The position numbers were made by a program, and so were the translations under genes. Under the pieces are notes generated by a model, which searched no databases, was not told the DNA's origin, and saw nothing but the letters and a program-made list of their open reading frames with translations. DNA of 64,000 nucleotides from Somniosus microcephalus. Taxonomy: Eukaryota. The stretch covers positions 51,026,001-51,090,000 of the forward strand of contig CM126222.1 in the NCBI GenBank assembly GCA_052327205.1. Direction: 5' to 3'. Numbering within the stretch: the stretch's first letter is position 1; each line of letters begins with the position of its first letter. This document shows positions 58,311-62,779 of this stretch, in pieces.

Positions 58311-58397
58311 TGAGATGATAGTTATCAGAATGTTCTTTTTCCACTCCAGATATGTTCCTACAGTTAGGCTGGGCTCATCCTTGTGATCCAGAAAAAC
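58311..58397 (-). CDS. ABCA5: ABCA5 exon
   Basis: VFLDHKDEPSLTVGTYLEWKKNILITIIS|gtaagt; 87 nt, phase 0/0, joins to PYIQC. Confidence 0.85.
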
Positions 58398-58566
58398 CTG
58401 TGTATTCAATTTACAATGAATTTTGAGGTTGCCACGTTTTTTTTTTTTTTTTTAATTGCAGAATAACTTAACCAAAATAATTTTGCCCATTTATCAGTAT
58501 CTTAAAGTACATACTTTCAAACAAGTGGCTATTAAATACAGTTATCAGATACTGCACAATATAGAC

Positions 58567-58640
58567 CAGTGGCGGACAAAATACGGCGGGCTGTATGCGG
58601 CCTGCCAATGGATTCAATCCGGCCCGCCAAGGTCTGGCTT
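58567..58640 (+). mobile_element. Second hAT/Charlie-like left terminus
   Basis: CAGTGGCGGACAAAATACGG...GGCTGTAT...TCCGGCCCGCC, similar to the terminus at 59251; preceded by ATATAGAC. Confidence 0.55.
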
Positions 58641-59250
58641 CGAGGCTGAACGTCCACCGCACCTGATCCTACCCCACGTAACGTCAGGAGGCGGGTCAAT
58701 GTCTCCGAGGCAGCAGGGGAGTCATAATCAAAAACAGAGGTGGGCAAATTGAGTCTGCCCTTCGCTGCATCAGTATGTTATCACACCCAAAACCTCAGTT
58801 TCTGCTCCGTCACTGCAACGTGAAAGGTGAGTTACTCTCAGTTTGTGGGTTCTGTTTCCATAAATCTGTGCAAACTTTCCAGATAAATGCACGATAACAT
58901 AAATACTTTACATATATAAAATAACGCCATTGGCAGCATGACTCAGAATTGACACAATCTAATCGATTGGAAGGTTGCTTACTTGGAACTTTTTTTAAAA
59001 CTTGTAGCGAGTTTTTAGTCTCAACTCTGAGGGAATTTTAGCAAATAATTCAAAATTAGTCCTGGGCTTGATTTCATTCCAGTGAGCTATAAAATGTTAT
59101 TTTTGTTTATTGGTGCAATTGGGTGAAAGGTGTTTGAATTCCGCAGGGATACCGCCAGTCTCCCGGCATAATTCTGGCGCAGACCCAGTTACGTCGGGTC
59201 CCTGCCGTTTCTGGGAGTTTCCTGAGTAAAGAGTGGGGGAGCTTCTAGCC

Positions 59251-59994
59251 CAGTGCTGGGCAAAATACGGCCCGCGGGCTGTATCCAGCTCGCCAGTTCA
59301 TTCCATCCGGCTCACTGGACGGGACAGAAACAGAACACGAGCCGGAGCTCAAGCTGCACATTAGTCTGAGTTGAAGTTACCGAAGAAAGAGACCGGCGCT
59401 GCATCTTTCCCCTCTCAGTAACCAGAGTACGGCGGCAGGGGGATTCTCATCGCAGTCTTAGACACGGGAGTGGATCCTGGAGCACAAGGACTCCAGGTAA
59501 TGACACGCGATTGTATTTCAGGCCTTGCGAGGCCTTAGGCTCCCATACTCAGCACACCGAAAAGAGAGCACCTCTCGCGCGGAGGCCCCGAAGACTCGAG
59601 CCGCTCTACCAAACAGCCACGTAGACTTTCAGTACAACATATAATCGATCGATCAATCATTTCATTCATTTAGTAATGGAAGATTTTACTATTTTACACT
59701 ACAGTTTGTGTATTTAAGATAGTATCTGACTATCTGAATTTATGTTTATAAATTATTGGGAGTGTAGAAGTGGGAGTGATGATCAACTATGAGTTAGCCT
59801 GTTTCAAATTTACCAAGTTTACACTTTGCTCTCACCAACGTGCACGGTCCATTTAAATTTGTGCGCGGTATTTCTTCCAGCAGCAGGAGCTGGTGAGCGG
59901 TCGCGCACTTTAGGGGGGAACTTTGGTGCGCGGCCCTCAACAACTCACTAAAACTGGTTAAGTGGCCCCCTACCCCAAATAATTGCCCACCCCC
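59251..59994 (+). mobile_element. hAT/Charlie-like non-autonomous DNA transposon carrying the TPP2 fragment
   Basis: Left end CAGTGCTGGGCAAAATACGGCCCGCGGGC after a TTCTAGCC target-like site. Right-end-like GTGGCCC...AATTGCCCACCCC. Right TSD not seen. Confidence 0.6.
59377..59496 (+). pseudogene. TPP2: Orphan fragment of tripeptidyl-peptidase II (TPP2) exon 1 with in-frame stop and retained splice donor
   Basis: [39 protein letters not shown]|gtaatg versus human [43 protein letters not shown] at 59419-59421; no start codon. Confidence 0.9.
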
Positions 59995-60787
59995 AAAAAG
60001 ACAGACAGAAGGGCAGAGAGAGAGAGAAAAAGAGAGAGCATTTAACAGCAAGTAATTTTGGGCCTCACTAAAGAACTCTTCCCAAATTATACTGGTGCTG
60101 ATTTTCACAGCTTGCATTCTTGCTTTATATACAGCAGAGAACCGATGTACCCCGATCCAAGTGAAGCGTTTGGCAGCCAACAATAATTCCATTAAAACTA
60201 GCCTCTGCGACTGTCCCTGGCAAACATGCTTTTTTTTAAAATATGTATGTTGGCAACATTGTCACGGTTAATAAACCTTTTCCACTGTAGTAATAAAAGA
60301 TAAAATCCAAGCAATGATTTCAAGGCAGGTTAATTAAGGGCCCAGAATTTCAAATATTTACAGTTGTGCCAATGGTTCCTGATTATATTTATGATGTATT
60401 TTCCGTTCTGCATCATTTGTTAAGCTGCAGAACCAAAAAAACAAACCAAATGTGCAAAAATAATTTTCATTTATACAGAAATAAATCTATGCTGGTTATA
60501 ACGACAAGTGCTATTTTGAAAAGAAATTTTTCCAAGAATTAACGGATGTAGAAAAAAGTTAGCAGTTTTTCAGTATCTTATCATTTAGTGTTAAAAATGG
60601 AACTTCATGGACCTAGAATATTCCCACGGCACATCTTATATTGCTATTCAGAATCAGCTCGAGGATACTGCAATTTCTTTAATATTTTTCCTGTCTAGGT
60701 ACCCCGATGGCTCAGTTGGTAAGACATGGTCTGGTGTGTTATTGAGCTGTTGAAACCAGGAAGGTCCCAGCTTTGATCCTATGGTGT

Positions 60788-61790: not shown

Positions 61791-62641
61791 TCAAAGAATG
61801 AAGTCTTCTGAAGCGACATGCAACAAATTACAGTAAGAAGTTTTTTTTTTTTTTTTTAAGGGTTGTACTATATGTCATGCAGTAGGATCTGTTGTCTACA
61901 TTTAATATGCATCACTAGTTTGGGGGAGGCTGGTGGGGGGCAGGCAGCGGGGAAGTGTGCTGTGAGCTATCAAAAGCCAGGGACGGAGTTCGGGTGTTGG
62001 GGATGCAGAGGAGTGTGTAGGAGCCTCGGGCGTGGATGTAATGGGCTAGGTGTGATCTGGGAGCAATGAATTGCAGAAGGGGATGGAGTAGGATGTGGGA
62101 CACAGGCTTGGGATCCGAGTGTAAAACAAATTCCTGAGCGGCCAGAGTTGGGAATGGGCACCATTTGAAAGCATCACGGATATGAACATATGAAATTAAT
62201 GGGCAGGAAAAGACCAGCTAGTCCATCAAGCCTGTCCTTCACCTCATTACAGTTAGAACACAATGACTTTGACACATCCCCTCCCCACCATGCAGGTGCA
62301 CAAAGTTGGCTGCTTAAGAAAAAACATGGCTGCTCAAGGTTATCAAAAATAATTCTGAGAGCGATTTGATTGGTTGGTCTGTGGTGGTGTGATTCGTTGA
62401 TTTTTTCCTACCTGCCTAATGAATTAAAACAGTTTTTAATTGGTTTGCATTTAGCCAAATGGGACATTTGAGCCAACAGCATAATTTATTTAACAGACAG
62501 TGATGATTTTGGCAAATCACAATTTTTTGCCCTACAGTTGCACGATCCCTTTGTGGTGAGATTACAGGCAAAAGCGATATGAAATAAATAATTATATATT
62601 TTATGTTGAGAGACCAATAGTTATAAAAAATAGTTTCTTAC

Positions 62642-62779
62642 CTTGGCTGTGTAATACAAGCATCCTGTAATCACATATGGTGGAATAAAGAGCGACAAAG
62701 CGCAGTGCAGCATGGTGGCAACTGTTTCCTTTAGTATTAGCCGGACTAAGAATATTAGACTGATCGAAGCTATATTGAT
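62642..62779 (-). CDS. ABCA5: ABCA5 exon (TMD2)
   Basis: INIASISLIFLVRLILKETVATMLHCALSLFIPPYVITGCLYYTAK|gtaaga, compare human ATILHYAFCIIIPIYPLLGCL. Confidence 0.88.

Follow-up and report, generated by a model that had tools for sequence, protein, structure and literature searches.

The present locus raises the question of how the tripeptidyl-peptidase 2 (TPP2) gene's 5' end came to lie between the ends of a DNA transposon in an ABCA5 intron of Somniosus microcephalus. The stretch analyzed here, called the window throughout, comprises 64,000 nucleotides, and positions refer to it. A first, sequence-only reading had described TPP2 exon 1 inside a "Charlie-like" element at 59251-59994. According to the model favored by our results, to which we give a probability of about 0.88, the window contains a decayed copy of a non-autonomous hAT family which carries the TPP2 5' end and, in a composite subfamily, the 5' region of a 2'-5'-oligoadenylate synthetase (OAS) gene as well; this family spread to hundreds of sites, and its window copy is now likely a neutral passenger.

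The coding remnant is well defined. Positions 59377-59496 on the plus strand contain 40 codons of TPP2 exon 1, equivalent to residues 15-54 and including the catalytic-Asp motif IAVLDTGVD, and end at a CAG/GT boundary (59496/59497); the top PDB match of the encoded piece is tripeptidyl-peptidase 2 (E 1.5e-5). The single nonsense change noticed earlier is a TAA at 59419-59421, where the parent encodes Tyr. The donor GT (59497-59498) is followed by the first ~300 bp of intron 1 (annotated 59497-59838, plus strand): the sequence after 59497 matches the intron of the parental gene up to 59838 with 86-90% identity, as the sequence-only reading had suspected, and a part of it, 59637-59690, is without counterpart in the present-day parent. 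Because intron 1 is retained, retroposition is excluded; the TPP2 piece was captured as DNA, which the same reading had concluded from the donor. The capture also includes the 5'UTR (59315-59376, plus strand). TPP2 DNA consequently begins 64 bp inside the adjoining element end, not at ~125 bp as first estimated, and the junction shows 2-3 bp of microhomology. The missing ATG is a feature of the window copy, where a private deletion in the 5'UTR merges with a 17-bp deletion found throughout the family, but not of the family itself, since 50 of 67 scorable copies retain it.

The parent is a single TPP2 locus on contig C10 (L025), which runs into intron 1 as the earlier reading had anticipated. 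It possesses an intact exon from ATG to donor and no element ends, and 19 more TPP2-matching segments lie downstream of exon 1 within 137 kb. The closest named relatives of this gene are shark proteins named TPP2, and the undeleted exon 1 occurs once genome-wide at up to three mismatches. In the longest copies, similarity to the parent starts ~65 bp ahead of the ATG and extends ~500 bp into intron 1 (~735 bp); the window copy retains 59315-59838 of this stretch. At sites changed in the TPP2 gene of this genome, the copies keep the Val and Leu residues of other sharks. Taken with the element ends described below, these results confirm that the TPP2 piece is the cargo of a non-autonomous Pack element, which by the shape of its ends belongs to the hAT (Buster/Charlie) type.

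We rejected a second, diverged TPP2-like gene at G000:C1:456.17-456.19 Mb (L032, L033, L035) as donor, because its exons share only 69-74% identity with the C10 gene, against ~95% between the family majority and C10 exon 1. This gene is possibly an old paralogue kept in sharks. In another shark, several short gene models clustered on one chromosome (P0004, P0008, P0122-P0126) combine TPP2 exon 1, in frame, with unrelated exons; they may represent local duplicates or a separate capture.

The mobile unit at the window site spans 58567-59994 and is thus bigger than first described. The element ends recognized earlier, at 59251 on the left and up to 59994 on the right, are real, but the true unit starts at an outer left end; the outer half and a second cargo (58724-59250) had been missed. 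From left to right, the left copy of the 8-bp target site duplication (TSD; ATATAGAC, 58559-58566) is followed on the plus strand by the outer left end (58567-58723), which consists of the terminal inverted repeat (TIR) and ~145 bp of subterminal DNA common to a sister subfamily without TPP2. The adjoining OAS 5' region (58724-59250, plus strand) has its source on contig C19, with 84-95% identity to the segments L253 and L265. It includes a promoter remnant, from which the ISRE-bearing part is deleted in this copy, an exon end (58777-58826), a donor GT (58827-58828, plus strand) and then ~420 bp of intron, and terminates in a target-site-like 8-mer (59243-59250). The inner left end (59251-59314, plus strand) was originally the left terminus of the TPP2 Pack element and is the TSD-bearing end in non-composite copies. 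Behind the TPP2 part lie the right part of a nested ~150-bp MITE (59839-59925, plus strand), which in complete copies has its own TIRs and 8-bp TSD, the right end with its TIR (59926-59994, plus strand; the terminal TG is lost in this copy) and the right TSD copy (AAAAAGAC, 59995-60002). An internal deletion took the left part of the MITE, the remaining TPP2 intron and a further module, here termed X. In the window copy, the TSD flanks the outer left end and the right end, its two copies agreeing at only 6 of 8 positions and with a shift of one base.

Proteins of other sharks named after ABCA5, a cholesterol-transporter gene, map exon by exon to the minus strand; the flanking exons are located at 62639-62779, upstream of the host intron, and at 58311-58400, downstream of it. 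The element is therefore intronic, lies on the opposite strand and is 166 bp away from the next ABCA5 acceptor. By gene structure, the suggestion that TPP2 DNA would be transcribed antisense within ABCA5 pre-mRNA holds, but no effect of this position was seen. A single contig of another organism apparently spans the junction of flank and outer left end (window 58490-58591), hinting that the insertion may be shared between species.

Dispersed copies, proposed earlier as a check, are numerous. A genome search with 59330-59640 gave 476 candidates, the best 40 of which were scored and are 79-87% identical. The junction of the 17-bp deletion has 39 exact matches on 17 contigs; the deletion, which two TCTTTT repeats enclose and which frameshifts the exon, is present in all 54 copies with both flanks. 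Because it occurs in every scorable copy, one founder must have given rise to the family. A 29-mer spanning the TPP2 donor yields 293 matches at up to three mismatches, parent included, and none for the reversed control. Since this motif recovers 56 of 76 TPP2-bearing loci from other queries (some loci recur across the three sets), we estimate the family at ~400 copies. Apart from a few local duplicates, flanks differ among copies, which is not the pattern of segmental duplication.

The copies share their termini and have distinct 8-bp TSDs. For the TSD analysis, two twice-fetched loci were removed from 40 rows and copies showing only the inner left end were set aside; 25 of the 38 distinct complete copies match at 7-8 of 8 positions, compared with 0.9% of cross-pairs. 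The TSDs have a central TA, with T at position 4 in 25 and A at position 5 in 22 of 28 rows (one duplicate row included), and the TIR of 13 bp starts with CAG and is complementary at 12 of 13 positions in intact copies. Helitrons possess neither TIRs nor TSDs, and the family, having both, is distinct from them. Its TSDs agree with the consensus nnnTAnnn of Buster elements (PMC3517528), and the label hAT (Buster/Charlie) is a prediction from the shape of TIR and TSD. Between the element ends, no transposase reading frame was found in the fetched loci (30 of 39 left-end matches read). In line with the definition of Pack-TIRs in PMC8277862, both ends of one TIR element enclose non-TE DNA within the range of 100-5000 bp, and the parents (TPP2 on C10, OAS on C19) are free of TE flanks. 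With 86-90% per block, the window copy falls below the parent identity of at least 90% used as a filter in PMC8277862, while the family majority has ~95%; as applied there, we regard this threshold as an age filter and not as a mechanistic feature.

The second cargo distinguishes the composite form. In this form, the TSD flanks the outer left end and the right end, and a target-like 8-mer, identical in every composite copy, stands before the inner left end. The stretch between both left ends, which has 302 candidates, also occurs in a version that is 170-210 bp longer. A query with this module revealed no parent among 30 loci, drawn from the best 40 of the 302 candidates; the OAS parent was located via a rarer 214-bp piece, for which all 40 candidates were scored. 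The two parental segments on C19, L253 and L265, are without element ends, and host DNA runs past the point where the copies begin their inner left end. They constitute a local inverted duplicate, 91% alike, inside an OAS gene cluster, and differ from the module majority by 9-10%; either of the two could have been the donor. The cluster itself (G000:C19:25.95-26.10 Mb) consists of tandem and inverted OAS genes with ubiquitin-like exons.

Each parental segment contains two ISRE-like 12-mers 110-150 bp ahead of the splice donor, and the first coding exon of an OAS gene follows 2.1 or 2.9 kb downstream of this donor. Four of the five ISRE-like motifs in the 170 kb read fall within these two segments. 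Judged by such motifs, the OAS segment would be an interferon-responsive promoter with a first exon that probably does not code for protein; in the gene model of one relative, the OAS exon serves as a linker instead. At least one exact ISRE-like 12-mer is kept in 18 of 28 longer composite loci (a few local duplicates included). In the window copy, the exon end, the donor (58827) and the intron are preserved (84-95% identity), but both ISREs are gone. Three loci (L062/L237, L043, L045) show the outer left end and the OAS piece with no inner element, and L062 ends in a fused TSD, which would fit an excision of the inner unit. A composite founder locus, in which the OAS target site and OAS intron would come next to a right end, is absent from 14 pattern matches.

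The family is embedded in a larger set of related elements. Among 30 loci read from 39 exact matches to the outer left end, 19 have TPP2 DNA in view and seven a different interior, Y. The sister subfamily Y (L145, L149, L161, L174-L203; ~720-800 bp, 113 candidates) has the same termini and clean TSDs, and its interior comprises a GC-rich, exon-like stretch with a donor. No host parent of this interior was found in 30 loci from the best 40 of the 113 candidates; because Y may be the transposon's own promoter, we do not claim it as captured. Another interior type between the same termini occurs in L144 and L224. Some copies carry module I, a CpG-rich, promoter-like insert of 197 bp in the captured TPP2 5'UTR (L026:1266-1462; ~186 candidates) with a motif resembling a ZNF143/Staf site. 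Module I is maybe a third captured promoter; its parent was not among 35 loci read from the best 40 of 186 candidates, nor at five known element sites. No subfamily-diagnostic substitutions separate the basic, I and U forms.

On the right-hand side, a 3' module of ~560 bp shares its last ~150 bp with the sister subfamily. For the remaining module X (~410 bp), no parent was found among the loci read from the best 40 of 288 candidates; matches to X without TPP2 on C35 and C4 were rejected as parent, being local duplicates of one truncated copy. Lying in a larger GA-rich duplicated segment, this truncated copy (L129-L137, L143) has been multiplied tenfold or more. For the nested MITE, a filled site with its own 8-bp duplication and an empty site were both seen. 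Within one composite copy (L171, C14:23.34 Mb), a 21-bp left-end unit has grown to a minisatellite of ~3 kb. A search of Rfam gave only a chance mir-19 match (E 0.4).

The age of the family was examined with 70 de-duplicated copies. Its three structural classes have an identical majority sequence and are equally distant from it (5.4-5.9% at non-CpG sites, 7.4-8.1% at all sites), and the tree is star-like, with tip branches summing to 3.51 and internal ones to 0.29. Because class divergence is equal and the tree star-like, we conclude that capture, rearrangement and spread took place in one short period and then stopped. The TPP2 parent differs by 4% from the family majority. The closest pair of copies is 5.0% apart; hence the idea that a transposon family may be dispersing TPP2 exon 1 is true for hundreds of copies, but only of the past. 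With a dS of 0.061-0.111 over ~50 My separating the whale shark from the zebra shark (PMC13100897), i.e. a rate borrowed from other sharks, the family would be roughly 50-130 My old. It is not confined to Somniosus microcephalus, because 29 of 30 bins are covered by contigs of one other organism and all 30 by those of another, the OAS part among them.

Within the genome, neither the ATG nor the donor nor the codons show signs of selection. Codon positions have diverged by 5.6, 4.6 and 6.2%, and the exon (5.7%) does not differ appreciably from the intron (5.5%). The donor is kept in 61 of 70 copies and the ATG in the proportion given above, with ~90% and ~85%, respectively, expected neutrally. 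As an average over ~70 of ~400 copies, this makes it likely that the copies are neutral passengers now, with room for a few co-opted ones. In two RNA runs with the same species label, 41 and 180 reads match the family at 88% likeness, on both strands. One loose-end group of reads carries the parent's intron letters, and another exits the right end of a different copy into its flank.

We propose that the family arose in several steps. At the outset, ~735 bp of TPP2 (5'UTR, exon 1, intron 1) were joined to a point 64 bp inside the left end, perhaps because the promoter, open and rich in CpG, was copied during gap repair or by a template switch. The 17-bp deletion between short direct repeats frameshifted the exon in the single founder. 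TIRs and distinct TSDs with central TA point to subsequent cut-and-paste amplification, with the transposase likely supplied in trans during one old burst. The composite form, in which a second left end and ~530-730 bp of the OAS 5' region are added, could have originated from a TPP2 element that had inserted into OAS intron 1, where a sister left end came to sit upstream; transposase may have paired this outer left end with the inner right end and lifted the intervening DNA. Template switching into an existing element fits too. The last step is recorded by even decay and the star-like tree, on which the age estimated above rests.

Some copies might, after the same origin, have been co-opted, the TPP2 start and donor or the OAS ISRE promoter and donor serving as alternative first exon or interferon-responsive promoter. 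Most copies indeed keep donor and ATG, the ISRE-like motifs persist in the majority of longer composite loci, family RNA occurs on both strands, and a bat Helitron of the same anatomy provides a splice site to a host transcript (PMC4224331). Yet the retention rates equal the neutral expectation, and in the two RNA runs (24-31% of reads) neither a splice joint nor a loose end at the TPP2 donor is seen among the matches listed, although this is a weak test. We therefore hold co-option to be rather improbable, and the window copy, without ATG and ISREs and antisense to ABCA5, argues against it as well. A role of this copy through the ABCA5 pre-mRNA, either as antisense RNA to TPP2 or OAS or as a cryptic exon, could be imagined from its intronic position on the opposite strand, so close to the next acceptor; but the copy is 11% diverged from TPP2, just 5 of the 221 RNA reads are at least 99% alike, and its non-CpG divergence from the consensus (6.1%) is ordinary for the family, so that we consider such a role very unlikely.

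It is also conceivable that no transposition was involved, the TPP2 piece being a single-copy product of gap filling, or a segmental duplicate or retrocopy near transposon ends by chance. Gap filling independent of transposition is typical of most published animal Pack-TIRs (PMC8277862), but hundreds of dispersed copies with common junctions and distinct TSDs, a retained intron and a parent on another contig leave hardly any room for this explanation. Dispersal of a captured, non-autonomous hAT element followed by neutral decay is thus the model we retain.

Gene capture at such a scale by a cut-and-paste element is rarely reported in animals. According to the survey of 100 animal genomes in PMC8277862, gene capture by TIR elements is nearly always single-copy and transposition-independent: among 370 Pack-TIRs, 208 of them hAT, only four cases are multicopy, with 3-5 copies. 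Of these, Pack-hAT-N8_XT from Xenopus tropicalis resembles the present family in having hAT ends around a 5' gene piece, far from the parent, with repeated transposition and distinct TSDs. In comparison with the multicopy cases of that survey, the family described here is about a hundredfold larger (~300-400 copies), contains a coding first exon with donor and carries DNA of a second gene, located on a different chromosome. The word "shark" is absent from the main text of PMC8277862, and old families of high copy number would be prone to escape the filter applied there (parent identity of at least 90%, unique top match). Buster (Charlie-type) hAT MITEs such as Mar share a short TIR beginning CAG(G/T)GG and the 8-bp TSD nnnTAnnn; in the account of Mar (PMC3517528), a transposase was found and no host-gene cargo is described, whereas the shark family has cargo and no transposase in the fetched loci.

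Bat Helitrons are also among the closest known counterparts. In HelibatN3, rolling-circle transposition multiplied a NUBPL segment, consisting of the promoter, the first exon and some of intron 1, to about a thousand copies, and this and other promoter-carrying bat Helitrons (PMC4224331) likewise amplified promoter, 5'UTR, first exon and partial intron 1, with a bias towards 5' ends and with sequential captures. These elements are, however, rolling-circle transposons without TIRs and TSDs, whereas the shark family has both. Chimeric transcripts are reported in bats (PMC4224331); for the shark family, the weak RNA test gave no chimera. Plant Pack-MULE, Pack-CACTA and Pack-hAT elements (bioRxiv 10.1101/2021.06.18.448592) are similarly non-autonomous TIR elements with pieces from more than one locus; compared with such Pack-TYPE elements, the shark family is found in a vertebrate, old and inactive. 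In the literature searched, we found no report of this family.

The family thus displays plant-style behavior in a vertebrate: 5' ends from two chromosomes were captured and then multiplied to hundreds of copies. Intermediates within one genome, i.e. MITE sites with and without the insert, simple as well as composite forms and probable excision remnants, make the capture mechanism testable. With ~400 insertions of a donor-bearing exon, nature also offers a way to test whether intronic insertions in sense orientation are selected against. For genome annotation, it matters that the copies can yield false TPP2-like gene models. In a broader and, in our opinion, still doubtful scenario, a vertebrate cut-and-paste family took up the 5' ends of several genes one after another (TPP2, OAS and maybe a third promoter); shark genomes would thereby have received hundreds of ready first exons as well as dozens of promoters responsive to interferon, and some of these would now drive neighboring genes or splice into them. 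The ISRE-bearing subset in any case raises the question of whether a DNA transposon rewired shark interferon responses.
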